This document shows positions 19,186-48,690 of a stretch of 64,000 nucleotides of DNA, piece after piece. This DNA is from an uncultured Bacillota bacterium (GTDB lineage: Bacteria; Bacillota_I; Bacilli_A; ML615J-28; CAG-313), in assembly GCA_946611195.1 (NCBI GenBank), contig CAMODB010000004.1, positions 33 to 64,032 on the forward strand, in the 5' to 3' direction. A program made the translations under genes and the position numbers. Numbering within the stretch: position 1 is the first letter of the stretch; each line of letters opens with the position of its first letter. The notes beneath the pieces are model-generated. The model had not been told where the DNA came from and made no database searches. It saw only the letters and a program-made list of their open reading frames with translations.

Positions 19186-20040
19186 CTAAATATATAGTAT
19201 TAGTGGTTCATATTTATATATTTTATCACCATTCGTATCGATATAATAAGTCTTATTAACAATAGTATCTTTATCAAAAACATGTAAATAATTTTTATCT
19301 GAATATAATTTCTTATCATATCCAATATCATTTAATGATTGATTATCTAAATCATATACACTTTCAACTACATGTTGAATAATTTTTTTTGTGGTGTTAT
19401 TACTTTGAATTTTAACGTACTCACGAACGATAATTACATTACCATATAAATAATTATAGTCTTTCTTTGTTAAATTAAAATCATTTATTTTAATATTTTC
19501 AAAACTCAAATCATTAGGAAAGCTATAGATATCAGTATTAAGAATCTTAACATTATAAGATATATCATTACTAGAATCAAATACTATCTTTTTAAGATTA
19601 GGAAATGATTTATCAAAATTAAGATGTGAAACATCAATATTTGCTCCTATATGTAATTCTTCTACTTTATCACTATAAACAGTTGGTAATATACTATTAA
19701 CTTTTAAAGGTTTGTCTGAACAAAACTTACTTTTATTCCATTTTAAATATTTATTTTCCTCATTTATTGGATAAGATTTTTCCATAAATAATACTTTTTT
19801 ATCCGTCTTGATTTTTGATATAACAATATCGTTATTAGTACTATCATAATAAGCAGGTTTAAATACGAATTCATCATTTTCAAATTCTAATGAGTTATCA
19901 AAAACCAATCCATCAGCATTTGATGATTTATAAATAATACTTCTATGATAAGTATGATCAAATGAATTCATATAGATAAAAGTGGAAATTAATGGTGCCA
20001 ATAAATTCATTATAATAAGTAATCTTATTATTTTTTTCAT
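19186..20040 (-). CDS. Cassette 1 gene C: N-terminally anchored hypothetical protein
   Basis: N-terminal hydrophobic anchor. Mosaic similarity to 21684-22625, with shared blocks SILPTVYSDKVEELHIG, SFPNLKKIV, DLDNQSLNDI and DTNGDKIYKYEPL. Confidence 0.6.
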   Translation of the reverse strand: MKKIIRLLIIMNLLAPLISTFIYMNSFDHTYHRSIIYKSSNADGLVFDNSLEFENDEFVFKPAYYDSTNNDIVISKIKTDKKVLFMEKSYPINEENKYLKWNKSKFCSDKPLKVNSILPTVYSDKVEELHIGANIDVSHLNFDKSFPNLKKIVFDSSNDISYNVKILNTDIYSFPNDLSFENIKINDFNLTKKDYNYLYGNVIIVREYVKIQSNNTTKKIIQHVVESVYDLDNQSLNDIGYDKKLYSDKNYLHVFDKDTIVNKTYYIDTNGDKIYKYEPLILYI

Positions 20041-20778
20041 CTATTCCACCTCCCACTTTGCATATAAAATGATCGGTTTATATTCATCACCTTTGATTAC
20101 TAGATCATTTTCAAAATCCCATTTGTTAATACATTCTTTTTCTTTATACCAGCCTTTAAATATATAGCCATATCTAATAGGATCAGTAGGGACATGATAA
20201 ATTGGAAAGTTATTAGAAAAAGAATCTATATAATAAATTTCATCATCGATGTTTGTAGTATATATGACATTACAATAAGTATACATCGAATCTTCAGTCG
20301 GTAAATCACTCAAATCTTTAATAGTAATATCTTTAGGTAATGAATAAAAATGATCACCATGAGTGGTAATTGGAAAAACACATGGTTCTTGTAAGATAAA
20401 AGCAGGAAGACTAGAATAATTTTGAGGAAAATTTATTATTTTTACGCCTTTTGGTATATATAATCTACCATATCCAAAAAAATTGATAAACTGATTTAAA
20501 TCAAGAATACCTACTCTTATACCATCTATTGATGAAGGTATTACAAGACAGGGATTGTCCTTTTTTTTAGCACAATCAACTATTTCAATTTCTTTACCAT
20601 AATTACTTTTAGCAATTATATAGCTAAATTCACCATTATCAATTATTTGATTTCTCGAATTAAATAATCCAACAGTTTTATAACTACTCTTAATTCTAAA
20701 AGGAATTAAAAATAAAATTAATAAAACAACAAATGATGTACATAATGAAATAATTATGATTTTTTCTTTTTTACTCAT
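20041..20778 (-). CDS. Cassette 1 gene B: membrane-anchored protein with a degenerate BspA-type LRR and a C-terminal Flg_new repeat
   Basis: TM anchor IIIISLCTSFVVLLILFLIPF. VIPSSIDGIRV. GYIFKGWYKEKECINKWDFEND...LYAKWEVE. Confidence 0.6.
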   Translation of the reverse strand: MSKKEKIIIISLCTSFVVLLILFLIPFRIKSSYKTVGLFNSRNQIIDNGEFSYIIAKSNYGKEIEIVDCAKKKDNPCLVIPSSIDGIRVGILDLNQFINFFGYGRLYIPKGVKIINFPQNYSSLPAFILQEPCVFPITTHGDHFYSLPKDITIKDLSDLPTEDSMYTYCNVIYTTNIDDEIYYIDSFSNNFPIYHVPTDPIRYGYIFKGWYKEKECINKWDFENDLVIKGDEYKPIILYAKWEVE

Positions 20779-21520
20779 AATTACTCATCTCCCAACTATC
20801 TAATTTAGCATATAATATAGTTTTATTATTTATTACTAAATCTTTATAATATGGTATTGTACATTCTTTATCTAAATACCAACCTTTAAACCCAATTCTA
20901 TCTAGTTGATATAATTCTTTGATTGTTTCATTATTATAATCATCAAAATAAATATAATCACTTGAATCGTCTTTTATATTTAATGAATATATTAGATTAG
21001 GTATACTGTAATTTACATCTGAACTTGATTCATTATAATAATATACTTTGGTTTTATATTCTTTTTTTAAATCCTTAACTAATGTTTCATCATTAATAAA
21101 GATCTTTTCAATTGTTTTATTATTATCTAATAAATCATTTAGATTAACTTCTATTCCTTTATCAATAAATAATTTTTTGACTGGTAAATTGGGTTTTAAA
21201 CATATATCTTTAACAATTAAATCACCTTTTATATAATCAAAGTGATTGCCTTCTTTTAAATAAATTGTTTTATTTAAATGAAGAGTATCTATCTCATTTA
21301 TTAAATTCTTTACTGTTAATGTATTATCATCATTAAGATAATAATTAATATTATCTTGATGAAGTTCTAATATTTTATCTCCCTTTATTTTTGTTACATA
21401 AGGTTGATTATTTAATACTACCTTTTTAGTAGCATTATATGAAATACTAGGCATAAAACATAACAAGATAAAAATAATAATTGATATTGGAATTACTATA
21501 AATATTATCTTTTTATTCAT
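20771..21520 (-). CDS. Cassette 1 gene A: membrane-anchored protein with a C-terminal Flg_new-like repeat
   Basis: Differs from 23329-24078 at one amino acid. The start is taken at the ATG homologous to copy 2; the ORF track extends to 21532. Its SD is altered from AGGAG to ATGAG. Confidence 0.6.
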   Translation of the reverse strand: MNKKIIFIVIPISIIIFILLCFMPSISYNATKKVVLNNQPYVTKIKGDKILELHQDNINYYLNDDNTLTVKNLINEIDTLHLNKTIYLKEGNHFDYIKGDLIVKDICLKPNLPVKKLFIDKGIEVNLNDLLDNNKTIEKIFINDETLVKDLKKEYKTKVYYYNESSSDVNYSIPNLIYSLNIKDDSSDYIYFDDYNNETIKELYQLDRIGFKGWYLDKECTIPYYKDLVINNKTILYAKLDSWEMSNYE

Positions 21521-21553
21521 TATGAATCTCATTTAATTATACGCATTAGTACT

Positions 21554-21649
21554 TCATATAATTAATACTATTAATGATAAAACAGCAATAATACAAATTG
21601 CGGTGAAAACAATTAATAAAATATTATATATTTTTTCATATACATCCAT
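21554..21649 (-). CDS. Cassette 1 small TM peptide, 31 aa (MDVYEKIYNILLIVFTAICIIAVLSLIVLII)
   Basis: GGAGGAATCAAT-ATG SD. Homologous to the 49-aa ORF at 24071-24220 but ends early at a TGA. Confidence 0.4.
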   Translation of the reverse strand: MDVYEKIYNILLIVFTAICIIAVLSLIVLII

Positions 21650-21683
21650 ATTGATTCCTCCATCTATTGTTCACTTATTTATA

Positions 21684-22625
21684 TTAATAATTTTTTATAT
21701 ATAAAACTAATGGTTCATATTTATATATCTTATCACCATTTGTATCATTATAATAATTCTTATTAATTATCGTGCTCATATCAAATTCATTTTCAAATTT
21801 CGAATCTAAATATAATTTTTCATCAAATCTGATATCATTTAATGATTGGTTATCTAAATCAAATACTTTATAAATTGCTCCATGGTAAGCGTAAGTGTAT
21901 GTGTAATTATATTCATTTTTATAATATCCTGATATATATTCATAATTTCTAACAATAATAACATTACCATATATATAGTCATAATCTTTTTTTGTCAAAT
22001 TAAAATCTTTTAATTCACTATGTTCATAATCACTGTCACATGGAAATGAATAAATATCTAGATTTGAGTTATAATTATTGCCAGATATATCATAACTAAA
22101 ATCATATACTATCTTTTTAAGATTAGGAAATGATTTTTTAAAATCTAGATGCGAAGTATCAATGTTAGATCCTATATGTAATTCTTCTACTTTATCACTA
22201 TAAACAGTTGGTAATATACTTACAACTTTTAGTTTATAATCTGAATAGAACTTACTATTTTTCCAATTATAATACTGTTGTTGCTCATTAATTTTATATG
22301 CATTTTCAATGTATAGTATTTTTTTATCTGTCTTAATTTCTGATATGACAAGAGAGTTATTACTACTATCATAATAAGCGGGTTTAAAAACAAATTCTTC
22401 ATTTTCAAGTACTAATGTATTATCATCTATTGAAGATTCCATTTTCAAAGTATTTCCTATAACATTTCTAAATGCTTCTGCCATTATATTTCCCGCATCA
22501 GAATCATAATTTTTTCTTAAAAAGAATAAATTATCATAATAAATATTAGAATTATAAAATATTATAGTGGAAAAAATAGGGGCTAATAAATTCATAATTA
22601 TTAAAAGTATAATTATTTTTTTCAT
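21684..22625 (-). CDS. Cassette 2 gene C
   Basis: Paralogue of 19186-20040 with variable segments. Confidence 0.6.
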   Translation of the reverse strand: MKKIIILLIIMNLLAPIFSTIIFYNSNIYYDNLFFLRKNYDSDAGNIMAEAFRNVIGNTLKMESSIDDNTLVLENEEFVFKPAYYDSSNNSLVISEIKTDKKILYIENAYKINEQQQYYNWKNSKFYSDYKLKVVSILPTVYSDKVEELHIGSNIDTSHLDFKKSFPNLKKIVYDFSYDISGNNYNSNLDIYSFPCDSDYEHSELKDFNLTKKDYDYIYGNVIIVRNYEYISGYYKNEYNYTYTYAYHGAIYKVFDLDNQSLNDIRFDEKLYLDSKFENEFDMSTIINKNYYNDTNGDKIYKYEPLVLYIKNY

Positions 22626-23336
22626 CTATTCTACCTCCCATTTTGCAAAAAGGAAATTGAATTCGCTAGCAGCACATATATCATTTTCAAAATCCCATTT
22701 GTTGATACATTCTTTTTCTTTATACCAACCTTTAAAAACATAGCCTTTTCTTACTGGATCATTAGGAATATAATCAATTAACTGATCTTTATAAACATCT
22801 TTAAAATATACTTCATTATCTACATTTGTTAAATAAATTAAATTACAATAATAGAATAATGCATTAGGCGTTGCAAGCTTATCAATATTCTCAACATCAA
22901 AATGATTAGGAAAAGAATAAATATTTCTACGTCGCGAATTACTCCTTTCAAATGCATACGGTTCTTGTAAAACTACATATTTTTGATATCCGTTATTTGT
23001 TAATTGTACACCTTTTGGTATATATACTTTGTAGTCATAACTGTCAAAGTTTTTTAAATTAATTTTTGTAACTTTCATACCATCTATATATGATGGGATA
23101 ACTAAATAAGATTCTGGATTACGATGATAATTTATTATTTCTAATTCTTTACCATAATTTGTTTTATTGACAATATAATCATAATTTTCGGTAACTACAA
23201 CATTAGAATTACTATATTTATTTTTATATATTTTTTTACTTGCAAGATTATCCTTAAATGGAATTAAAAATAGAATTAATAAAATAACAAATGATGTACA
23301 TAATGAAATAATTATGATTTTTTCTTTTTTACTCAT
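22626..23336 (-). CDS. Cassette 2 gene B (degenerate LRR plus Flg_new repeat)
   Basis: Paralogue of 20041-20778. The first ~27 aa and the C-terminal GYVFKGWYKEKECINKWDFEND block are conserved. Confidence 0.6.
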   Translation of the reverse strand: MSKKEKIIIISLCTSFVILLILFLIPFKDNLASKKIYKNKYSNSNVVVTENYDYIVNKTNYGKELEIINYHRNPESYLVIPSYIDGMKVTKINLKNFDSYDYKVYIPKGVQLTNNGYQKYVVLQEPYAFERSNSRRRNIYSFPNHFDVENIDKLATPNALFYYCNLIYLTNVDNEVYFKDVYKDQLIDYIPNDPVRKGYVFKGWYKEKECINKWDFENDICAASEFNFLFAKWEVE

Positions 23337-24078
23337 AATTACTCATCTCCCAACTATCTAATTTAGCATATAATATAGTTTTATTATTTATTACTAAATC
23401 TTTATAATATGGTATTGTACATTCTTTATCTAAATACCAACCTTTAAACCCAATTCTATCTAGTTGATATAATTCTTTGATTGTTTCATTATTATAATCA
23501 TCAAAATAAATATAATCACTTGAATCGTCTTTTATATTTAATGAATATATTAGATTAGGTATACTGTAATTTACATCTGAACTTGATTCATTATAATAAT
23601 ATACTTTGGTTTTATATTCTTTTTTTAAATCCTTAACTAATGTTTCATCATTAATAAAGATCTTTTCAATTGTTTTATTATTATCTAATAAATCATTTAG
23701 ATTAACTTCTATTCCTTTATCAATAAATAATTTTTTGACTGGTAAATTGGGTTTTAAACATATATCTTTAACAATTAAATCACCTTTTATATAATCAAAG
23801 TGATTGCCTTCTTTTAAATAAATTGTTTTATTTAAATGAAGAGTATCTATCTCATTTATTAAATTCTTTACTGTTAATGTATTATCATCATTAAGATAAT
23901 AATTAATATAATCTTGATGAAGTTCTAATATTTTATCTCCTTTTATTTTTGTTACATAAGGTTGATTATTTAATACTACCTTTTTAGTAGCGTTATATGA
24001 AATACTAGGCATAAAACATAACAAGATAAAAATGATAATTGATATTGGAATTACTATAAAAATTATCTTTTTATTCAT
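23329..24078 (-). CDS. Cassette 2 gene A
   Basis: AGGAG SD 7 nt upstream. TM anchor. GFKGWYLDKECTIPYY...ILYAKL. Confidence 0.65.
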   Translation of the reverse strand: MNKKIIFIVIPISIIIFILLCFMPSISYNATKKVVLNNQPYVTKIKGDKILELHQDYINYYLNDDNTLTVKNLINEIDTLHLNKTIYLKEGNHFDYIKGDLIVKDICLKPNLPVKKLFIDKGIEVNLNDLLDNNKTIEKIFINDETLVKDLKKEYKTKVYYYNESSSDVNYSIPNLIYSLNIKDDSSDYIYFDDYNNETIKELYQLDRIGFKGWYLDKECTIPYYKDLVINNKTILYAKLDSWEMSNYE

Positions 24079-35981: not shown

Positions 35982-36338
35982 TTAAGATAGTATTATACTA
36001 GACAAAACGTCGTTTAATTTTGGTATATCATTTAATATTACTTCATATACTATCGTATAATCAGTTTTACCATAATCATGTACAATTCTATTTCTAAAAC
36101 CTATGATATCATTCCAACTGATATTGTTATATTCGTTTTTAAACGAAGCACTCAATTTTTTTATATTTTCGCTAATTTGAATTAGTCTAAACAATATAGC
36201 ATCAATTAACTGATCATCTTCAATAAATTCTTCATATGAAATATTGCCTGTGTACTTCAATATTTTATGAATATCTTCTAAAATTATATTGATATAATAT
36301 TTATCGTCTTTTGTATTATCCATATATCTTAATACCAT
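35982..36338 (-). CDS. hepT: HepT (DUF86/HEPN) toxin of a type VII TA system
   Basis: RNRIVHDY matches the Rx4HxY HEPN motif. Overlaps the upstream MNT gene by 23 nt. Confidence 0.8.
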   Translation of the reverse strand: MVLRYMDNTKDDKYYINIILEDIHKILKYTGNISYEEFIEDDQLIDAILFRLIQISENIKKLSASFKNEYNNISWNDIIGFRNRIVHDYGKTDYTIVYEVILNDIPKLNDVLSSIILS

Positions 36339-36798
36339 CTTTCATTATTTCATTTATTAATTCAAAATTATCTTTTAAATCGTGGAAGCGAATGACATCG
36401 ACATTTTTGTTTAATGCTTGATGTAGTTTTTCGACTAATCCTACAAATTTTAAACCTGTAAGAGTAGTATCAATACATAGATCTACGTCACTATCTTCTT
36501 TTGCGTAACCTTTTGAGTATGAACCAAATAAATAACAAAAAGATATGTCCGCTTTGTATTGTTCAAGCACACTTAGAATAATTACTTTTAGTTTTTCTAA
36601 AGAATATATCCCTTTAGTCTCATTCATCTCATATTTTTCAATTAATAAATCCATTATTTTTTGATATTTTATATTTGCTTCGTCAGTACTTGCTTCATAT
36701 CTTATATATGTTCTTAACGGAATTCCGACAGATGTTGAAGCTTCTATTTGCGTTATACCAAATGATTTTCTTAATTCTTTTAAATTCATTTTGCTCAC
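36316..36798 (-). CDS. mntA: MntA nucleotidyltransferase antitoxin with an N-terminal XRE-type HTH
   Basis: GSYSKGYAKEDSDVDL matches the GSx10DxD NTase motif. N-terminal LRKSFGITQIEASTSVGIPLRTYIRYE is the HTH. Confidence 0.8.
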   Translation of the reverse strand: MSKMNLKELRKSFGITQIEASTSVGIPLRTYIRYEASTDEANIKYQKIMDLLIEKYEMNETKGIYSLEKLKVIILSVLEQYKADISFCYLFGSYSKGYAKEDSDVDLCIDTTLTGLKFVGLVEKLHQALNKNVDVIRFHDLKDNFELINEIMKDGIKIYG

Positions 36799-36809
36799 CT
36801 ACCACATAT

Positions 36810-36890
36810 ATTATATCATATTGGCATTATTTGTCAAGAAAAAAATGCCATTTTGACATTATTTTTTAAGAAATAAGTGCCATTTTGACA
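36810..36890 (-). promoter_or_regulatory. mntA-hepT promoter (TTGACA, 16 nt, TATAAT) with two upstream 13-bp direct repeats TGTCAAAATGGCA
   Basis: -10 at 36810-36815 and -35 at 36832-36837. The repeats lie at 36846-36858 and 36878-36890, 32 bp apart. Confidence 0.65.
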
Positions 36891-37839: not shown

Positions 37840-38697
37840 TTATTCTTTGTTATTAAATTTGTTAATACCAATCATATTGTAAAAATCCTTTAAAAATCTC
37901 TCTACATTTGAATCAATCATCCTATATAAAAACTCATCTTCGAATTTAGATAATTTATCCTTAGAATAATATGCTTCAGCGATAGATGTAGCCATAGCAC
38001 CTATTGTATCTGTATCTCCTCCTACCGCAACACAGTTTCTTATAGTATCTTCTATGCTATTAGATATTAAAAAACAATATATAGCTATAGGAACAGATCC
38101 TTGACATGAACTATTAAACTTATAATTTTTTACTAACTCATTAAAATCTAAATATTCTATTTCTTTATAATATTTATTTACCATTATTTTCTTTATCTCT
38201 TCTTTAGTAGAACCATGAAGAGATAAAAATATAGATAACGCAATAGCTTCTGCACCTTTAATTCCCTCAGGATGATTATGAGTAACTTCTGATACTGCTC
38301 TAGATAGAATTGTTACTTCTTGAACACTTCTAGCTATCCAACCAACCGGTGATATTCTCATTGCGCTACCATTACCATAAGAATTATATGGTTTTAAAAT
38401 AGACTTACTTTCATATGATTCTTTACACCAATTATAAAACATTCCACCAAAGCCAATATTCTTATGTTTATTCCAAGTATTAATAAATTCTATACATAGA
38501 TCTTTTTTTATTCCTTCTAATGATTCTTTAGAATAATTAATAGGATAATGTTTCATTAATACTTTCATTACCGCAAGAGTAAGAATAGAATCATCTGTCA
38601 TCCTCATTCTAATATCATATATATTAAAATCTTTTGTTTTACATGGATGAAATTCATAAATAGAACCAACCATATCTCCAATAATTGCGCCTAACAT
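37840..38697 (-). CDS. ADP-ribosylglycohydrolase (ARH/DraG family)
   Basis: N-terminal MLGAIIGDMVGS and C-terminal GGDTDTIGAMATSIAEAYY are ARH hallmarks. Confidence 0.75.
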   Translation of the reverse strand: MLGAIIGDMVGSIYEFHPCKTKDFNIYDIRMRMTDDSILTLAVMKVLMKHYPINYSKESLEGIKKDLCIEFINTWNKHKNIGFGGMFYNWCKESYESKSILKPYNSYGNGSAMRISPVGWIARSVQEVTILSRAVSEVTHNHPEGIKGAEAIALSIFLSLHGSTKEEIKKIMVNKYYKEIEYLDFNELVKNYKFNSSCQGSVPIAIYCFLISNSIEDTIRNCVAVGGDTDTIGAMATSIAEAYYSKDKLSKFEDEFLYRMIDSNVERFLKDFYNMIGINKFNNKE

Positions 38698-39137: not shown

Positions 39138-40331
39138 TTAGAATGGAAGATCATCTACATCAAGATCATCTATTTCTTGACTAATACTATCCTGTTTCTT
39201 ATTTAAATTATTAATAACTCTTAGTTGTAATACAGTTGGTATAAACATAGAAACTAAAGAATAAATATCATCAAATGAATATTCATAATTAAAATGATAT
39301 ATTTTTCTAAATAAATCAAAATATTTTTTATCTAAAAATAATGTTTCAATTGTATTATCGATAATTGCTATTTTTACTAAATTATCTCTAGATGTGCTAG
39401 ATATTGGTTTTTTCAAGTTACTTATTATTTTATTAATTTGTGAACAAGCATTTTTATACTTTTCTTTTAATTCTTCATTAAATTCAAAACTAATAGTAAT
39501 GTCATCATCTTCAATCTCTTGTTCTAGCATATTTCTACCATAAATAGTGCACTTAGTTTCATCAGCTATAATCGTATTTTCTACACTACCAAGTACATAA
39601 TATTCATAATCAGCAATAATAAGCATCTTAGAATGGCAATCTGTTATCTTCAAATCTCCAAAATTTACATTTTTATCTTCATTTGCATCGTAATTTTCAA
39701 GTTCATATTTCTCAACATCAAAAAATTCATCATTATCAAAAAATTCAACCTCAAAAAGATGCCATGTATCATAAACGTATTTTAATTTTTCATATAGCAA
39801 ATAATCTTTATTATTAATTGCATTTTCTGTCATATTAAAGTATTCATTTTTACCATAGATTCTATATTTCTCATATAATTCTTGAGAATAATCGTCATGC
39901 ATACCTTCAAAAGCTTTATAAGAAAATACAGCTCTACTATAAGAATTGGTTACAAAATGTATTAAAGAAAGCAATTCGTGAGTTTGATTAACAAAGTGAT
40001 AATCGTTTTCATCAAACATTTTTACTTTTACTATATTCTTATCACTACAACTATTTGCATTAGATAATAAATCGAGCATTTTAAGTACAACGCCTTTATA
40101 AAATCCTTTTTCGATAGATCCTTTTTCCTTTATTACTAAAGAATCTTCTCTTATATATTCGCATTCACATTTAGTTTTTAAAACAAAGTTTTCTTCGTGT
40201 AAATCTGGTACAAAAGTAATCAAATATTTTTGATGACATTTTACTATCTCGCTATTATTGTTTTCTACAAAATTCTCATCAAATATTATTTCAACGCTTT
40301 TACCTATTATTCCTCTTTTACTATAAGCCAT
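39138..40331 (-). CDS. Hypothetical acidic protein ending in an SSB-like C-terminal tip (…EIDDLDVDDLPF)
   Basis: AATAGGAGGATTT-ATG SD. No signal peptide. I recognise no family. Confidence 0.6.
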   Translation of the reverse strand: MAYSKRGIIGKSVEIIFDENFVENNNSEIVKCHQKYLITFVPDLHEENFVLKTKCECEYIREDSLVIKEKGSIEKGFYKGVVLKMLDLLSNANSCSDKNIVKVKMFDENDYHFVNQTHELLSLIHFVTNSYSRAVFSYKAFEGMHDDYSQELYEKYRIYGKNEYFNMTENAINNKDYLLYEKLKYVYDTWHLFEVEFFDNDEFFDVEKYELENYDANEDKNVNFGDLKITDCHSKMLIIADYEYYVLGSVENTIIADETKCTIYGRNMLEQEIEDDDITISFEFNEELKEKYKNACSQINKIISNLKKPISSTSRDNLVKIAIIDNTIETLFLDKKYFDLFRKIYHFNYEYSFDDIYSLVSMFIPTVLQLRVINNLNKKQDSISQEIDDLDVDDLPF

Positions 40332-40469
40332 AAATCCTCCTATTTACCAATATAAGTTTTATTGTATAATATTTTTCAGCCACTATTAACATGCAATTGC
40401 ATAATATAGGTATTTTAAAAATGACATAATACATTGTCAAAATATATATAAAAATAAGTTTCAATTGTA

Positions 40470-41297
40470 TTACTCTACATCTATTTTATAATATTCAGAG
40501 TTAGTAAATCTATAGTCTTCCGGATAATAACTTTGTAAGAAACTATCAACATCTTTTATTTGAGTAAAAATTTTTAATCCTTTATAAAATAGTTTTTCAG
40601 GAATTAGTTTAACTACATATTTACTTAAATTTTTAATTCTAAAATTTTTCCGCATTCCACCATGTTCTGTAATAGAAGCATCATATATGAGTTCTAAATG
40701 AAATGAATCTACATCGTCGCCGCTTTCTGTTAGCAAATCTTCAATAGAAATATTTTCTATCATAAGAATTACTCTTGGACTATCTTTAAATTTGTTGTAT
40801 TCAGAGATTATATAATTGATGGATTCCTCAATTCCTAGATCAATCTTTAAATCCCTTAAACCAACAGCATTAAAATATGCAAAACGAGCAACTTCTCCAA
40901 TTTTAATATTAGAAAAAGTTACAGCAGATAAGAAATTGATAGTAACATAGAAATCTCCATATTCATAGTTATGCATTTCTCCAAATGTCAGAGTATGTTC
41001 TTCGCAAAAATAAGTATTGCGAGTTTTTCTGTATTCGTTAATTGTACTTACAATTTCTTTATTTTTTTCGTTTGAAAAATAATATTCTTTAACAGCTTTC
41101 ATAATCTTTATTGAATGATCATGAATTAATTTAATTTCATTCATGTCGCACTCAAGAGCTGCTAAAGACGTCCCGTGAAATAAAGGCTTTCTACAAACTT
41201 TCATATCAGATGTATCTATTTCTTTGCCAAAATAATTCATCAATGATTTTTCATCGATATTTATATAGTTAATCTTTTCCATAAAAATTATTCTCAT
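40470..41297 (-). CDS. Hypothetical protein with ADP-ribosyltransferase-like (H-Y-E type) motifs
   Basis: PLFHGTS (H41), GDFYVTINFLSAVTF (Y117-x10-F128), and candidate Glu strands VILMIEN / FHLELIY. The start codon is uncertain. Confidence 0.35.
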   Translation of the reverse strand: MRIIFMEKINYINIDEKSLMNYFGKEIDTSDMKVCRKPLFHGTSLAALECDMNEIKLIHDHSIKIMKAVKEYYFSNEKNKEIVSTINEYRKTRNTYFCEEHTLTFGEMHNYEYGDFYVTINFLSAVTFSNIKIGEVARFAYFNAVGLRDLKIDLGIEESINYIISEYNKFKDSPRVILMIENISIEDLLTESGDDVDSFHLELIYDASITEHGGMRKNFRIKNLSKYVVKLIPEKLFYKGLKIFTQIKDVDSFLQSYYPEDYRFTNSEYYKIDVE

Positions 41298-41379
41298 CCT
41301 ATAATCAATTTTTTAGTGTAGATGTTCTATATGGTTTTATATTATATATTATTTAAAAACATTATTAATTCATCAATTT

Positions 41380-42648
41380 TTATATAGTAATTCCTTTACT
41401 TTCCATTTTTTTAACAATATTAGAATACTTTCTATTTTTATTGAAAGAAGCTGTATCAGCAATTTGATTAGATATTCTAATTAAATCACCATTTTCTAAT
41501 TTGATAATATCATTAAAGAATCTTGAAGAATCTTTAATATTACTAACTAAGGAAGTCATTTGAGGAAATTCACTATCTATTTCAGCAAATGAATTAATAT
41601 TATAACGTTTAATATATTCATTAAATAATTCAAAAACAATCCTTCTCTTACTTTTTTCCTTACTTTTAGCTGGTTTTGTAGATGAACTAACTTTTTTAAC
41701 GTTCATACCATAGCTAATACCAATATATTTATCACCTGGATTTGCTATTTTTGTTTGTGTGGATAACATTAATTTACTTAGATAATCATCATATTCACTT
41801 CCATATCTTTTTCTAAACTGCTCTTGGGCATATTGTTGTAGCTCTAGCATTTCACCAACATCATTATTTTTTACTTTTATATCAGGGGCAAAAGTATGAC
41901 AACGGTTTTTACCAGATTTTGGTGTTAAAATATAATTTAAAGGACATGCTAATCTTAAAAAATGAGCTTTTAATACATCTATTGCTTGTTTAGGAGCATT
42001 AACTATTACCCTTGAATAAAAACTACCATACTTATCACTTCTTGGTAAATAATCTTCATATTCGCCACGAGTAATACCATATAGTTTACACCACTCACTT
42101 TCATTCATGCTCTTACCATTTATTAAATAATCCATTCCACTATCAATAATGTGTGATATTTTATATCCCGAATCAGCAAAACCAGGATTTTTACCTTTCT
42201 TACCATCTATGGAGTAAGCTGCTTTTACTTTTTCGTATTTCGAGTCACATGGACCAAATCTTGCAGGAAACTCTCTAGAAATCATTGCTTCTTTAAACTC
42301 ATGATAATCAGGCACATATTCATCTAAGGCCAACTTATAAAAATATGCAGCAAAGAAATTATCAGTAAAAAAATAAGAATATTCATTAGTTTGAGTAAAA
42401 AAGCCTCTTCTTAAAGAAATATAGTTCTTTTTACCTTTCTCAGTATTATTATAGTTTCTAATAACAAAAACAGCATCAGGATCATTAATGTACTTTAAAA
42501 GCATATGATATATACCAATAACAACATCCTTCTTAGGTAAACAAGGCTCTACAAAGTGTTCCCAGAATTCCTTTATAGTATTATCACTACCATCTTTAAT
42601 AACATCTATCTTTGGTTTATTTAGAGTTTTAAGTTTATCAATTAGCAT
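41380..42648 (-). CDS. Hypothetical protein, 422 aa
   Basis: Long ORF with coding-like composition. I recognise no motif confidently. Confidence 0.5.
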   Translation of the reverse strand: MLIDKLKTLNKPKIDVIKDGSDNTIKEFWEHFVEPCLPKKDVVIGIYHMLLKYINDPDAVFVIRNYNNTEKGKKNYISLRRGFFTQTNEYSYFFTDNFFAAYFYKLALDEYVPDYHEFKEAMISREFPARFGPCDSKYEKVKAAYSIDGKKGKNPGFADSGYKISHIIDSGMDYLINGKSMNESEWCKLYGITRGEYEDYLPRSDKYGSFYSRVIVNAPKQAIDVLKAHFLRLACPLNYILTPKSGKNRCHTFAPDIKVKNNDVGEMLELQQYAQEQFRKRYGSEYDDYLSKLMLSTQTKIANPGDKYIGISYGMNVKKVSSSTKPAKSKEKSKRRIVFELFNEYIKRYNINSFAEIDSEFPQMTSLVSNIKDSSRFFNDIIKLENGDLIRISNQIADTASFNKNRKYSNIVKKMESKGITI

Positions 42649-42681
42649 TATTCATATTTCCTTTCTTATTACAAATTTATA

Positions 42682-43269
42682 TTAAAATAACTTTTTCATA
42701 CTTCCAGTTACGCCATCTTCCATAAATACATTTATATCTTGATTCATTAATATTTTCATAATTTCAGCGCCGTTTTTTGAATCATATATAGCATCAAAAG
42801 CTATTTCCCAAAGTTTCCTATATAATTCTTTATTATTTAGATCCAATTTAAGTTCACTTCTCGTATATGGATGTATACTAATTAATTTACTAGTAGAAGA
42901 TTCTACTAATTCTGCACAACCAACTTGTTTTTGAAAGGTAGGTGCGTATAAATTGATAACATATTTTTTATTAATATTTTGTTTGTTAGTATTTGAATAT
43001 ACAATGTAATTTTTAAATTTAATAAGAGCACTTCGATAACTATTATGGCTTTTAGCTCCAAGATCTTTTTTATTACCTTCAGTGTAATCATAACATAATG
43101 TTTCAATATTGTCATGAATATCTTCTAGTGTTATTTCTTCAAATCGACATATCATTATTATTCTTTTACAATAATCTTCAACCGTACTATCACTTAAATT
43201 AGCCTCTTTTTTTAAATATTCACGAAAACCATTTAAATCTTTTTTATCAATATTTTTATATTTATTCAT
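42682..43269 (-). CDS. Hypothetical protein whose N-terminus resembles an integrase-type SAM-like/core-binding helix bundle
   Basis: FREYLKKEANLSDSTVEDYCKRIIMICRF. AGGAG SD and a consensus promoter lie upstream. No catalytic recombinase domain. Confidence 0.45.
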   Translation of the reverse strand: MNKYKNIDKKDLNGFREYLKKEANLSDSTVEDYCKRIIMICRFEEITLEDIHDNIETLCYDYTEGNKKDLGAKSHNSYRSALIKFKNYIVYSNTNKQNINKKYVINLYAPTFQKQVGCAELVESSTSKLISIHPYTRSELKLDLNNKELYRKLWEIAFDAIYDSKNGAEIMKILMNQDINVFMEDGVTGSMKKLF

Positions 43270-43292
43270 AAATATCTCCTAAATACGCTTAT

Positions 43293-43321
43293 ATTGTAAC
43301 ACACTAATTTTGGTGTGTCAA
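43293..43321 (-). promoter_or_regulatory. Consensus promoter TTGACA, 17 nt, TACAAT, with an inverted repeat ACACAC/GTGTGT in the spacer
   Basis: The minus strand reads TTGACAcaccaaaattagtgtgtTACAAT, followed by AGGAG and the ATG of the 195-aa ORF. Confidence 0.65.
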
Positions 43322-43571
43322 GTGTTTTGATTAAAAAAATTTTTTTCTTACAAGATGCAAACTATTAATACTAAATCACTCTATAAGCTTTTGATCCTAT
43401 TATACAAAAAAGATGTGTCGAAATTGACACATCTATTATTGAATTTGATTTAATATATCCAACAATTTCTTTTTGAACATCATTGGTTATAATAATTCTA
43501 TCTTTTTGGATAACTTTTATATTGTCATCTGGCAAAATTATCTTTACAAGAAAAAGCACAAAAATATAAAA

Positions 43572-44879
43572 TTAAAATGGTAATGGTCCATCATCGTCAT
43601 CAAATTTTGATGAATATTTATATTTTTCTTTTTCTTCAGCTTCTTCTTCAGCTTTTGTTTTTTTAACAATAAATTTATCACCATTCTTATCCACTATTTT
43701 GCAATGTAAATCTTTTAAAACCATTTTTATATCTTTATGAACTTTTAGTTCTTCATAGTTTTCTTTTATCACATGTATTAACATGTAATATGGATTAGAT
43801 TTTGTGCCTATATATGCGCTGCTATTATAAAAGTTGCACTTAATTCTATATTTATGTGGTTCTTCTATATCGGTTGGTCCAAAAAATTCTTCCGTAGTAT
43901 ATCCTTCTCCATACCCAATAATATCATCAGCTATTTCAGCATTTTCTGGTAAAATAATTCTCTCTAAATTAAAACATCTTCTAAATGCTTCATTCCCAAT
44001 TTTCTCAACACTATCAGGAATGACTGCATTCTCTAAACTAACACATTCGGAGAAAGCCAAGCTATCAATTATCTTTAAAGTTTTTGGTAAATTTATTTCT
44101 TTAAGCTTTTTACAACCAAAAAATGCACTATCACCAATTCTTTTTAAATTACTAGAAAAAGTAATGTTTTTCAAATTACTACAATTACGGAATGCATCTT
44201 CCTCAATCACTTCAACGCTATTAGGTATTACTATACTTTCTAAATTCGTATTACCAGAAAAAGCACTTTTACCTATTATTTTTACACCTTCAGGAATAAT
44301 AGAATTCTGACATGTGGCAATTAATAACATCTTCGTCTTATCAACAATAACATTTGAATTAAATGATCCATAATTAGGATTGCTATCATCAATTACTATT
44401 TTTTCCGCGTTTTTAAAAAATTTAGAATAACTATCACCACACTCAATATATTCAACACTATCTGGAATAATAATACCTTTTGCAGAACAATCTACATCCA
44501 AGTAAACATGAGTTAATGCATCTGGAATAGTAATTTCGTCAATTGCATCAATGTATTTACTTTTAATTCCTGCTGTTCCTGTAAAAGAATCATACTCAAA
44601 TAAATCATCTTGCATAATATCATATGTAGATTTTTCTACTAAATTGTAAACAGTTGCTTTTCCATTTGCAATTATTTTTAATTCCTTACTATCATTAGAT
44701 AATAATAGTACAATCTTATTCATCTCACTTGATATTCTATATTCTAATCTTTCGTTCACTCCTTGCATATCATAATCAGCCGTATAATCAACATCTAATT
44801 TAAATTCAGGAGCTGTTATATCATTTTTTTTGTTTTTATTAATCACACCTGTTATTCTAAATCCATCGACCCAAGACAT
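43572..44879 (-). CDS. Cytoplasmic BspA-type LRR (LRR_5) protein ending in an SSB-like tip (…KFDDDDGPLPF)
   Basis: Repeats of the form IP.SV..I...AF..C..L. No signal peptide. A Lys/Glu-rich linker precedes the acidic tail. Confidence 0.65.
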   Translation of the reverse strand: MSWVDGFRITGVINKNKKNDITAPEFKLDVDYTADYDMQGVNERLEYRISSEMNKIVLLLSNDSKELKIIANGKATVYNLVEKSTYDIMQDDLFEYDSFTGTAGIKSKYIDAIDEITIPDALTHVYLDVDCSAKGIIIPDSVEYIECGDSYSKFFKNAEKIVIDDSNPNYGSFNSNVIVDKTKMLLIATCQNSIIPEGVKIIGKSAFSGNTNLESIVIPNSVEVIEEDAFRNCSNLKNITFSSNLKRIGDSAFFGCKKLKEINLPKTLKIIDSLAFSECVSLENAVIPDSVEKIGNEAFRRCFNLERIILPENAEIADDIIGYGEGYTTEEFFGPTDIEEPHKYRIKCNFYNSSAYIGTKSNPYYMLIHVIKENYEELKVHKDIKMVLKDLHCKIVDKNGDKFIVKKTKAEEEAEEKEKYKYSSKFDDDDGPLPF

Positions 44880-45299: not shown

Positions 45300-46235
45300 T
45301 TATTTTTTTATTTTAGCCTCACACTCAACATATTCATCATCATCATCTTCATCATCAGCTTCATTAAAACTATTTAAATGAATATATTTGTCTGTCATAT
45401 CAATTGAACCTACAATTACACTTTTTAAATTATCGCACCACCAAAATGCATTATCCTTAATTCTTACTAATTTATTTTGTATTTCAATTTTTTCTAAAGA
45501 ATGGCACTTACTAAATGCATCTTCTTCGATTTCTTTTACACTTTCTGGAATTGCTATATTTGTCAATTTATAACATTCTCTAAATGCTTCTGTTCTTATT
45601 GTATCAACTTTGCTTGAAATAACAATATCAGTTAATTGTTTGCATCCAGCAAATAATCCAATATTAATTTTAGTAATATTATCTGATAATTTTATATGTT
45701 TTAGACTAGTACATCCCGCAAATGCCCCTTTTCCAATTTCTTTTACACTATCAGTCATGATAATTTCATTAATTCTTGTGCATTTGGCAAAGGCCCAATC
45801 GCCTATTCTTTCTACTGAATTTGGAATATTAACTCTAGTCAAACTTTTACAACCACAAAATAAACCTTCTTGAATAGTTTTTATGCTATTTGGTATTTCT
45901 AATCGATTAATCTTTTTTTCATTTAAATATAAAGCACTACCATAAAATAGCGGATTGGAATGCACTGAAACAAAATCTATTTTACACCAAGATTCAACAC
46001 TGCTTATACCAACATATTTAATTTTTTTGCATCCAAAAAATGCTTCTTTTCCTATTTTACGCACACTCTCAGAAAGTATTATTTTCTTAATATTATTGCA
46101 ATTTAAAAATGCATTGTCTTGTATTTCGACGACCCCATTAGGTACTACAATAGATTCTTCGTCACATCCTTTTATTAAAACATTATCTTTAATTATTAAG
46201 CTCAAACTTTTATTCCTCCCATTAAAAAATATCAT
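45300..46235 (-). CDS. Cytoplasmic BspA-type LRR (LRR_5) protein with an acidic C-terminus
   Basis: At least 8 repeats of the form IP.SV..IG..AF..C..L. No signal peptide. Confidence 0.65.
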   Translation of the reverse strand: MIFFNGRNKSLSLIIKDNVLIKGCDEESIVVPNGVVEIQDNAFLNCNNIKKIILSESVRKIGKEAFFGCKKIKYVGISSVESWCKIDFVSVHSNPLFYGSALYLNEKKINRLEIPNSIKTIQEGLFCGCKSLTRVNIPNSVERIGDWAFAKCTRINEIIMTDSVKEIGKGAFAGCTSLKHIKLSDNITKINIGLFAGCKQLTDIVISSKVDTIRTEAFRECYKLTNIAIPESVKEIEEDAFSKCHSLEKIEIQNKLVRIKDNAFWWCDNLKSVIVGSIDMTDKYIHLNSFNEADDEDDDDEYVECEAKIKK

Positions 46236-46292
46236 ATTAGAATAATCTTTATAATTAAATCAAATAGATAACTTTAAAACTGAAAATGGATA

Positions 46293-46499
46293 TCAATATT
46301 CTTCCCTTATCGCATTTTCTAATATTTTATAAGTGTTTATTAGCTTTTCAAAAGAAGGTGTTATATCCAATCTTTTAGCGAAAGATCTTAAAGATTCATC
46401 ACCACGTATTTTTCTCATGCATTTTCCAAAAGCACTAATCATTATAATACAATTGAAATCATTTATTACTATCAAACACCCTATATTATTAGAGTTCAT
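46293..46499 (-). CDS. Short ORF with a degenerate XRE-like HTH; possibly a remnant
   Basis: MRKIRGDESLRSFAKRLDITPS resembles an HTH. The N-terminus is poor and there is no clear SD. Confidence 0.25.
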   Translation of the reverse strand: MNSNNIGCLIVINDFNCIIMISAFGKCMRKIRGDESLRSFAKRLDITPSFEKLINTYKILENAIREEY

Positions 46500-46539
46500 T
46501 ATCAGTCTACTTAAAGTTATTGTGGTCTCGTTTGGTTAG

Positions 46540-47223
46540 TTATTGTTCAATCTTTTCTAACAATCCTTGTAATTTGCATATAAGATGATTGTAATCACCT
46601 TTTACATCTTTGCAATGCAAGATAGGATTATACGCTCCGAATAAATTTAGGCTTTCAGATGATGAATCGGAAAATGAAAACAATGGAGATCCATCAAATT
46701 CTGGAGGAAAAGCAGTTTTTATAGCACCAAACTATTCAATTGTTCCATTGTAAAAAACATCTTTCATTTTAGTAAACTGAAAAGCATTGGAGCTTATAGA
46801 CTCTATAGCTTTGCTGAGTTTAATCTTTGAAAGCAATTCACAATGAAAAAACGCCCTTGCGCCAATAGATACAAAAACTAGTTCAGTGATAAGCTTGCAA
46901 TTAGAAAAGGCTTCTTCTTCAATACGGATAAGTGATTTAGGTAATTCTTTTTTTGCAAGTATCAATTTATAGCACGAAGAAAATGCAGAAGAACAGATCT
47001 CAGTTATTGAGTCAGGCAGATTAATTGATGATAGGTTTATGCATCGCGCAAAGGCAAGCTGATTGATTCTACGAAGAGATGATGGTAGTTCTACTGAAAT
47101 AATAGATTCGTTATCTTTGAAAGCACTATCGCCAATTGCAATCGTTCCTTCAGGAACAACCACATATCTATTGTGACCAATATATTTAATTAAAACACCA
47201 TCTTTAATTTCAAAATCCCCCAT
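46540..47223 (-). pseudogene. BspA-type LRR protein split by an in-frame TAG (46732-46734)
   Basis: 163 codons, then TAG, then 63 more codons in the same frame. The junction FYNGTIE*FGAI fits the common LRR_5 C-terminal motif GT.EQW..I. Confidence 0.5.
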
Positions 47224-47252
47224 AAATATACCTCACAAAAACATTTTTTATT

Positions 47253-47831
47253 TTAATATGGAAAATAAGCATTTTTTATTTTTGAAATTTCTCTTTTTAG
47301 TTTTTTATTACACTCTTCTAAATCAAAAGAATTAAAATCTAACATTGTATGTCTTCCTCTTTTTATAAATAATAAAGGATATTCTAAAGGTTTACCATCT
47401 AGGTAATCTTCTAAAATGAATTTCCCATCTTCTACAATACCATATCCGACTCCATCAACAACTCTTGGAATTCTATATATTTCTTTTAATTCAATTTGTT
47501 CTATTACTTCAATAACAAATTCGTAATTTTCACCAAAATCATATGTCATCATAAATTTATTGTTTTTAATATCTAATTGATCTAAAGTTACTGACCAAGT
47601 ATTAATACCTTTATCCGGATAACCCATTTCTTCAGCTTCTCTTAAACTGATTTCACATTCATATTTTTTAAAATCATCTTCAAATTCGTATAAATGATAT
47701 GCTAATGTATTAAATATTGAAAGAATTGTAAATGCTAATTCATCTAAATCATTATCATGTTTAAATAAAATAGTTCTATTTAACCTATCTTCATAATTAT
47801 TAAGCGATATTTTTAATTTATAATATTTCAT
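47253..47831 (-). CDS. pRiA4b ORF-3-like (PRiA4_ORF3) family protein
   Basis: MKYYKLKISL....R.I......L.EL...I......HLYEFE matches the PF07929-type N-terminal pattern. Confidence 0.55.
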   Translation of the reverse strand: MKYYKLKISLNNYEDRLNRTILFKHDNDLDELAFTILSIFNTLAYHLYEFEDDFKKYECEISLREAEEMGYPDKGINTWSVTLDQLDIKNNKFMMTYDFGENYEFVIEVIEQIELKEIYRIPRVVDGVGYGIVEDGKFILEDYLDGKPLEYPLLFIKRGRHTMLDFNSFDLEECNKKLKREISKIKNAYFPY

Positions 47832-48321: not shown

Positions 48322-48690
48322 TGGTGGATGTGCTGGGAATTGAACCCAGGTCTTAAACTTTACTCAATATGTTTTCTACATGTTTAGTTTATTTTTAGTT
48401 TTCAATTAATATTTGAAATAAACAAATAAATATTAATCAAAGCTATTTTCTCGTTGATTTATTTAGCAGATAAATCAATAAAGTCTATTTTCTGAAATCA
48501 AGAATATTCATAGACAAAACATTTCTTGATATAAACCATCTATTTCAAGATGGGCGCTTTACAAATTAGTATGCAAAGCTATAATTTTGATTGTTTGCGT
48601 TTATATTTAAATAAACCTCAGGTTTTAACGTGCCTACCCACGACATGCTTACACATCTAAAAAAATCTAATCGAATCCTAAAACACACCC
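48322..48690 (-). ncRNA. ssrA: tmRNA (transfer-messenger RNA)
   Basis: The 5' end GGGUGUG pairs with the 3' end CACAUCC-ACCA, including the G3:U alanine identity pair. T-arm GGGUUCAAUUCCC. 5' GGAUUCGA box. Candidate tag ORF GCA AAC AAT CAA AAT TAT AGC TTT GCA TAC TAA at 48598-48566. Confidence 0.85.

Follow-up and report, generated by a model that had tools for sequence, protein, structure and literature searches.

An SSB-tip-like C-terminal peptide on a leucine-rich-repeat protein and an orphan protein of one chromosomal island

[quoted passage not shown] The question is raised by a 64,000-nt stretch of contig CAMODB010000004.1 from an uncultured Bacillota bacterium (GenBank assembly GCA_946611195.1), hereafter called the window. 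Two of its proteins, the 397-aa orphan p397 and the 435-aa BspA-type LRR protein LRR435, end in acidic residues followed by Leu-Pro-Phe and the free carboxylate. We show below that the two endings are not expected by chance, that they are retained in close relatives and that the same kind of ending recurs on unrelated proteins elsewhere, and we weigh, with due caution, whether they may be docking peptides of the SSB-tip type.

Two tails on two unrelated proteins

Translation confirmed that both tails lie where a first-pass annotation, made from the sequence alone, had placed them, on a 397-aa and a 435-aa open reading frame (ORF). In the p397 gene (39138..40331, minus strand; ORF list), window 39138-39182(-) translates to SQEIDDLDVDDLPF and a stop codon, so that the predicted cytoplasmic orphan carries the C-terminus DDLDVDDLPF-COOH (39141..39170, minus strand). 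The acidic run ahead of its LPF is DDLDVDD, with only two contiguous acidic residues. In the LRR435 gene (43572..44879, minus strand), window 43572-43607(-) reads KFDDDDGPLPF and a stop codon, giving the C-terminus FDDDDGPLPF-COOH (43575..43604, minus strand), and the tip is preceded by a Lys/Glu-rich low-complexity linker, KKTKAEEEAEEKEKYKYSSK (43605..43664, minus strand). LRR435 matched PF13306 (LRR_5) at E=3.3e-35 with 121 bits against a cut-off of 27.7, and its layout consists of an N-terminal domain, LRR_5 repeats at about residues 190-310, a C-terminal domain, the linker and the tip. In both proteins a disordered linker ends in an acidic tip and [LI]PF-COOH.

The ending is rare in its surroundings. 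A [LIVM]PF C-terminus was found in 2 of the 52 window ORFs of at least 100 aa, and in 2 of 292 when a six-frame set of ORFs of at least 30 aa was used; in each set the carriers were p397 and LRR435 only. We modelled chance by the amino-acid composition of the window (Pro 2.8%, Phe 5.0%; G+C 26%), counting [LIVM]PF-COOH together with at least 3 acidic residues among the preceding 6, and under this model 6e-4 such ORFs are expected per 52 genes, with P(>=2) = 1.9e-7. In line with this rarity, a published count over the proteome of S. mutans UA159 gives only 3 LPF-COOH proteins, of which 2 are SSBs (PMC5143411). The earlier claim that two such tails so close to each other are unlikely to be chance therefore holds. 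Recent duplication of a tail cassette was ruled out as their source: the codons differ (CTT CCA TTC in one tail, TTA CCA TTT in the other), the flanks of the two tails are also unrelated, and none of the repeat families in the window spans either tail. Since codons and flanks differ, the tails are not copies of one DNA segment and arose either independently or long ago.

Neither carrier resembles an SSB outside the tail. Searches of Pfam, NCBIfam and PHROGs gave no SSB or OB family match for p397 or LRR435, and hhalign of the p397 family against a 34-member cluster of canonical SSBs returned a probability of 0.3%, in agreement with the initial view that the two tailed proteins are unrelated and non-OB. 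To judge from these comparisons, p397 and LRR435 are probably not OB-fold SSBs (PF00436), a cryptic OB fold in p397 being formally conceivable. The AlphaFold2 (AF2) model of p397, built on a 4-sequence alignment, reached a mean confidence (pLDDT) of 32 and is unusable, and the OB-like order of strands and helices in it is no evidence. No signal peptide or transmembrane segment was predicted in p397 or LRR435, unlike in a control lipoprotein of the same window, and both are predicted to be cytoplasmic, where the partners of SSB are.

p397 is a nearly isolated protein. It had no match in Pfam, PHROGs, NCBIfam, PADLOC or PDB sequences, only 3 full-length relatives were found among 5.8e9 proteins, and an exhaustive HMMER search of 1.84e9 representatives returned its own cluster plus only a fragment and a partial relative, P0125. 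This metagenomic protein of 441 aa shares residues 233-389 of p397 as its N-terminal module, differs in the rest and has no tail. As the C-terminal half of p397 recurs in P0125, p397 itself is a two-module protein.

Retention and recurrence of the tip

The stop codons of the tail-bearing relatives of p397 and LRR435 sit inside their contigs, so that these C-termini are real. A p397 relative with 84% identity ends EEDDLPF and another, P0003 (71% identity), ends DDDVDDDFNF, and the region before the tip differs among the p397 relatives in both length and sequence. The orthologues of LRR435 are P0004, P0005 and P0008; at 99% identity the ending is DDDDGPLPF, and P0005 (78% identity) ends IEDDNLPF after a linker that varies in length and sequence. 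The very last residue is Phe in p397, in LRR435 and in every relative with a tail, and Pro is penultimate with a hydrophobic residue at -2, as LPF, in p397, LRR435, P0002 and P0005. A constant acidic run and terminal Phe beside a freely changing linker appear to be the pattern of a short linear motif under selection, one that seems to have been gained and lost and in which Pro is apparently not obligatory. Presence of the tail in orthologues had been proposed as a test, and its outcome was mixed: the acidic run and terminal Phe were kept at 71-84% identity, whereas P0008 is tail-less and P0003 ends in FNF, without Pro.

A similar tip was found in a second LRR family. Among the best 120 LRR_5 matches to LRR435, 7 end in acidic-[IV]PF, and these are seven members of a family of about 700 aa (P0030, P0040, P0057, P0066, P0068, P0093 and P0101; genes at L002:5910-8009 and L006:4105-6210). 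Their tails include DEDEIPF, GEDEVPF, TREEIPF, EKDEVPF and DEDPIPF, overall a [DE]-rich [IVP][IV]PF, and the consensus tip DFEEDEIPF resembles MDFDDDIPF of E. coli SSB. The family spans 59-87% identity with P700, F701 and one upstream Phe invariant, has no signal peptides, and is encoded on contigs of 42-49% G+C among ordinary chromosomal neighbours. Because it is unrelated to LRR435 outside the repeats, intracellular LRR_5 proteins have acquired the tip on two or more occasions. Each of the ~700-aa proteins adjoins a tail-less LRR paralogue of 735-738 aa, and in L002-L005 a gene for a 124-aa orphan comes next. BspA-like proteins of the classical kind are adhesins that are secreted or sit at the surface, whereas LRR435 and the ~700-aa family lack signal peptides. 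Other LRR_5 matches carry kinase, TIR or BRCT domains according to Pfam annotation and are apparently intracellular, so intracellular LRR_5 proteins are a broader, poorly understood class.

Outside LRR proteins, we scanned IMG/VR for DNA encoding DDD-[LIMF]-P-F-stop, in which DDD is required of all 113 viral examples of the tip by the selection itself, and obtained at least 120 loci. Canonical SSBs were called with an iterative hidden Markov model seeded with the SSB cores of E. coli and B. subtilis. Among the matches listed, 118 ORFs end at the match, canonical OB SSBs account for 41, and those tail-bearing viral ORFs that measure 60 aa or more make up at least 37 sequence clusters. The 72 non-canonical carriers among them comprise gp32-like and several other SSB families (Pfam, PHROGs) as well as superfamily 2 (SF2) helicases of 562 and 610 aa with ResIII, DEAD and Helicase_C domains (L071:4839-6524(-) and L130:942-2771(+), ending DDD[IL]PF), DUF968 and SpoVG-like proteins with the same ending (L120:6190-6528(-) and L119:2278-2574(-)), a processivity-factor family and many families of unknown function. 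With at least 37 clusters of unrelated carriers, the tip is portable: it may be described as a docking module that is common on phage DNA-transaction proteins and was probably acquired independently rather than by common descent. The notion that such a tip on a non-SSB protein is without precedent is thereby overturned, as DDD[LIM]PF-COOH occurs on many non-OB viral proteins. The unannotated viral carriers include small proteins of 73-75 aa and 84-108 aa. Relatives of p397, p275, p422 (the latter two being island neighbours described below) and the ~700-aa LRR_5 family were found in neither phage genomes nor viral contigs, and LRR435 gave in the same search only a generic LRR match to a tail-fibre-like protein. 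A full-text literature search with motif strings and terms such as SSB-Ct mimic and SSB-Ct-like, SSB-Ct denoting the C-terminal tip of SSB, yielded papers on SSB itself and nothing else. The Retron-Eco11 effector has a conserved C-terminal peptide of its own (YYPxxLRxx), which was considered and rejected as a relative of the tails.

The island beside the tmRNA gene

Both tailed genes belong to an accessory island that begins directly 3' of the transfer-messenger RNA (tmRNA) gene ssrA (48322..48690, minus strand; ARAGORN; Rfam RF00023, 128 bits), and the accessory setting proposed for them was in this way confirmed. The tag encoded by this tmRNA, ANNQNYSFAY, ends in an aromatic residue and not in ...LAA. 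Aromatic-ended tags occur in Mollicute-like lineages, where Lon reads the tag. The reading of the island as a prophage or integrative element was ruled out, as it contains neither an integrase nor an att-like repeat of the tmRNA 3' end and has no viral relatives. Counted from ssrA, the island encodes a PRiA4_ORF3-family protein, two LRR_5 ORFs, LRR435, p195, p422, p275 and p397; it continues past p397 with an ADP-ribosylglycohydrolase and a nucleotidyltransferase/HEPN-like pair, after which ordinary metabolic genes follow. This gene order is repeated in 3 other metagenome contigs at ~98-99% identity.

The transcriptional signals separate the tailed genes from the genes between them. A terminator-like hairpin with a T-run follows LRR435 (43411..43434, minus strand), a strong sigma-70-like promoter, TTGACA-17-TG-TACAAT, lies upstream of p195 (43293..43321, minus strand; 11/12 matches), and a further sigma-70-like promoter, TTGACA-17-TAAAAT, lies upstream of p397 (40412..40440, minus strand; 11/12 matches). 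From this hairpin and these promoters, the two tailed genes are separate transcription units that flank a p195-p422-p275 operon. The first product of the operon, p195 (42682..43269, minus strand), is confined to one domain of tyrosine recombinases, the SAM-like (core-binding) domain of their N-terminus (PF02899, E=1.8e-7). The second gene encodes the orphan p422 (41380..42648, minus strand), which had no significant family or PDB match and no phage match. The third encodes the orphan p275 (40470..41297, minus strand), which has a single homologue, no family and an unusable AF2 model (pLDDT 30 from 2 sequences); neither p422 nor p275 found anything among PDB sequences. The stretch FHGTS...GDFYVTINFLSAVTF in p275 recalls the His and Tyr motifs of H-Y-E (PARP/DarT-like) ADP-ribosyltransferases, and its gene lies two genes away from that of the ADP-ribosylglycohydrolase. 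Assignment of p275 to the H-Y-E ADP-ribosyltransferases received no Pfam support even at E<=10 and no usable model.

The ADP-ribosylglycohydrolase gene (37840..38697, minus strand; PF03747, E=1.9e-34; phrog_6572) lies downstream of p397, and this order is found also in L001, L132 and probably L135. At the far end of the island, overlapping ORFs (35982..36798, minus strand) encode a nucleotidyltransferase (helix-turn-helix plus nucleotidyltransferase domain) and a partner that looks HEPN-like when its sequence is read by eye, and the two would form a pair of the toxin-antitoxin type. A 32-nt tandem direct repeat (36817-36880) just upstream of this pair may be an operator. On the ssrA side, LRR311, LRR163 and the PRiA4_ORF3-family gene occupy 45300..47831 on the minus strand (ORF list and Pfam). 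LRR311 (311 aa, 45300-46235(-)) has DDEDDDDE 11 residues before a basic ...AKIKK C-terminus without a PF tip, and this arrangement is conserved in L001.

A distant version of the module (L009:462-3261) has a tail-less LRR460, a p195 homologue with 39% identity and, at the position of p422, a Cys-rich protein of 240 aa. With LRR and p195 present there and the tail absent, the LRR-p195 pair is the conserved core and the tip a lineage-specific addition. The 240-aa protein has CxxC...H...CxxCH spacing that suggests an HNH or zinc-finger nuclease, and it had no Pfam match. Outside the island, window 19186-24078(-) contains two tandem three-gene cassettes (284/245/253 aa and 313/236/249 aa) whose N- and C-termini are almost the same. 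Their part of the window has the lowest G+C (~21%), and the N-terminus of the first gene product of each cassette resembles a lipoprotein or secretion signal.

What the tails may do, and what they resemble

We read the shared tip as functional because it is non-random, is retained in close relatives and recurs in another LRR family and in viral proteins. Our preferred explanation, which we put forward tentatively, is that the tails are docking peptides of the SSB-tip type that would engage SSB-tip-binding pockets. The terminal Phe with its carboxylate would enter the hydrophobic pocket, lined by a basic rim, by which proteins of DNA replication, repair and recombination grip the tip of SSB; the candidates are host RecO, RecJ, RecQ-family helicases, PriA and DnaE, or phage RecT-type annealases. 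Phage RecT proteins specifically recognise the final 7 residues of the SSB of their host (bioRxiv 10.1101/2020.04.14.041095), so tip-recognising proteins are common in conflict settings. The tips would in this way probably plug p397 and LRR435 into DNA-replication or repair partners. The globular part, whether the protein-binding LRR scaffold or the orphan fold of p397, would be brought onto the partner or would compete with SSB for it, and a tipped LRR scaffold could serve as an adaptor between a tip-binding protein and the ligand of the LRR. The choice of partner, and recruitment, competition or bait as the outcome, we infer.

Several observations weigh against docking of this type. Neither tail is a perfect DDD[LI]PF, p397 having DVDDLPF and LRR435 DDDD-GP-LPF; Gly-Pro separates DDDD from LPF in the latter, and P0005 has Asn there. 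The C-terminus FNF of P0003 lacks the Pro, and in E. coli the Pro mutation ssb-113 (P176S) cripples SSB. P0008, the LRR435 orthologue with 46% identity, has a different C-terminal extension in place of the tail and is still paired with its p195 partner, which means that the core module can do without the tip. No DNA-related domain was recognised in p397, LRR435 or their neighbours except for the SAM-like p195, and when p397 was compared by hhalign with the tail-bearing phage proteins, in 11 clusters, no probability reached 1%. LPF-COOH, finally, has a documented function of another kind, as a degron.

That function supplies a rival explanation, which we regard as unlikely for these proteins, namely that LPF-COOH is a degradation tag which an AAA+ protease (ClpXP, or in a Mollicute-like host Lon) reads directly or with the help of an adaptor. 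p397 and LRR435 would then be constitutively unstable, as antitoxin-like, immunity-like or tightly dosed regulators, which would suit an island that holds a toxin-antitoxin-type pair. The host's own tag, ANNQNYSFAY, has an aromatic end, so the protease that reads it accepts C-termini of this kind. ClpX-dependent degradation of GFP in vivo needs no more than an added LPF in S. mutans UA159, where SsbA and SsbB are also degraded by way of their LPF (PMC5143411). However, whether LPF is recognised depends on the strain, pure ClpXP fails to recognise it in vitro, and neither E. coli nor S. gordonii does so (PMC5143411). S. mutans moreover needs all three residues, DPF and LDF failing, whereas relatives of the proteins studied here end in IPF, VPF and FNF, and the acidic run, the most constant feature of the present tails, is not required for the degron.

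It is also somewhat improbable, to about the same degree, that the tail docks on a receptor outside the SSB interactome, such as a single island hub for both tailed proteins (p422, p275 or p195), a PDZ-like reader of hydrophobic-x-Phe-COOH or a non-classical export machine for acidic-hydrophobic C-termini. What LPF, IPF, VPF and FNF have in common is hydrophobic-x-Phe-COOH after acidic residues, a wider pattern than the SSB tip; the two tailed genes lie on either side of a single three-gene operon and are found together in all contigs that have them; and the tail-less LRR and different third gene of L009 would fit a tail that co-evolves with island-specific partners. Export would suit BspA-type LRR proteins, which are usually surface proteins and whose best NCBIfam matches are adhesins, but the island has no PDZ, ABC-exporter or secretion gene, and p397 and LRR435 lack the signal peptide or transmembrane segment. 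The ~700-aa LRR_5 family bears its tail in a different neighbourhood, without relatives of p195, p422 or p275, and the resemblance to the SSB tip would have to be fortuitous, in spite of an ending that hardly occurs elsewhere than on SSBs and DNA-transaction proteins. Least probable in our estimate is that the tails have no specific function and are acidic low-complexity ends that drifted alike in fast-evolving A+T-rich island genes. The island genes are indeed orphans with few relatives, the linkers are of low complexity, neighbouring LRR311 has an acidic run without a PF tip and P0008 has no tail. Drift is nevertheless hard to reconcile with the composition-based probability given above, with Pro and Phe codons that are G/C-containing or rare choices at 26% G+C, where Pro makes up so few of the residues, with relatives of 71-84% identity that still have the Phe end and the acidic run next to a changed linker, and with the invariant PF of the LRR_5 family of another lineage at 59-87% identity.

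A special form of the docking-peptide explanation, which we consider appealing but improbable, is that p397 and LRR435 are 'integrated-decoy' sensors, with an SSB-tip mimic that baits RecT-type annealases or phage helicases and nucleases of an invader. Capture on the LRR scaffold would then be coupled to the p195-p422-p275 operon, that is, to a DNA-binding SAM-like protein and orphan effectors. A defence or anti-defence function, suggested in the first-pass annotation, found no backing: there was no match in PADLOC-DB v2 at E<=0.01 for 10 island proteins, and no relatives appeared in phages or viral contigs.

The SSB tip is treated by the field as a property of SSB. If it is a portable plug, carried by LRR scaffolds and by phage helicases and nucleases, the SSB interactome would be open to hijacking, competition and surveillance by accessory genes, and such players could be sought by a simple sequence rule. 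For the BspA-type LRR proteins that occur inside gut and rumen bacteria, a large unexplained class, it would offer a first clue to function. Should the tails be degrons instead, a poorly understood strain-specific proteolysis signal would be extended to a new lineage.

Compared with known systems, the tails are most like the SSB-Ct (MDFDDDIPF in E. coli; ...DDDLPF in Bacillus, Staphylococcus and Streptococcus), with which they share the acidic run, [LI]-P-F, the free carboxylate and a flexible low-complexity linker (PMC5531588, PMC5872125). They differ in that the window carriers have no detected OB fold or ssDNA-binding domain, that the acidic run is interrupted and that the tip is not kept in every orthologue. 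With the S. mutans SsbA/SsbB degron, p397 and LRR435 share the exact L-P-F C-terminus, identical in the last three residues (PMC5143411), but that degron is strain-specific and needs an additional factor, and the IPF, VPF and FNF relatives would likely go unrecognised. The decoy idea would make the tipped proteins a bacterial analogue of the integrated decoys of plant NLR receptors, with a linear motif instead of a domain. Phage T7 offers the textbook pair: its gp4 helicase-primase and gp2.5 SSB are unrelated proteins that share an acidic, Phe-terminated C-terminal tail. Among precedents for a non-SSB protein with an SSB-type tail, this pair comes closest, as two unrelated proteins of one genetic element have the same kind of acidic Phe-ended tail and a common docking partner. 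The tail of gp2.5 has been described (PMC10359462). The T7 proteins, however, are replisome components that dock on T7 DNA polymerase with tails ending in DF, whereas the window carriers are an LRR scaffold and an orphan in a chromosomal island without replication genes and end in LPF. The viral DDD[LIM]PF non-OB proteins likewise combine unrelated folds with the same tip; the nameable ones are DNA-transaction proteins, and no LRR protein was among the matches listed. The novelty lies in the carriers of a known hub peptide, which are an intracellular LRR scaffold and an orphan, and in its place in a chromosomal island instead of a replisome.

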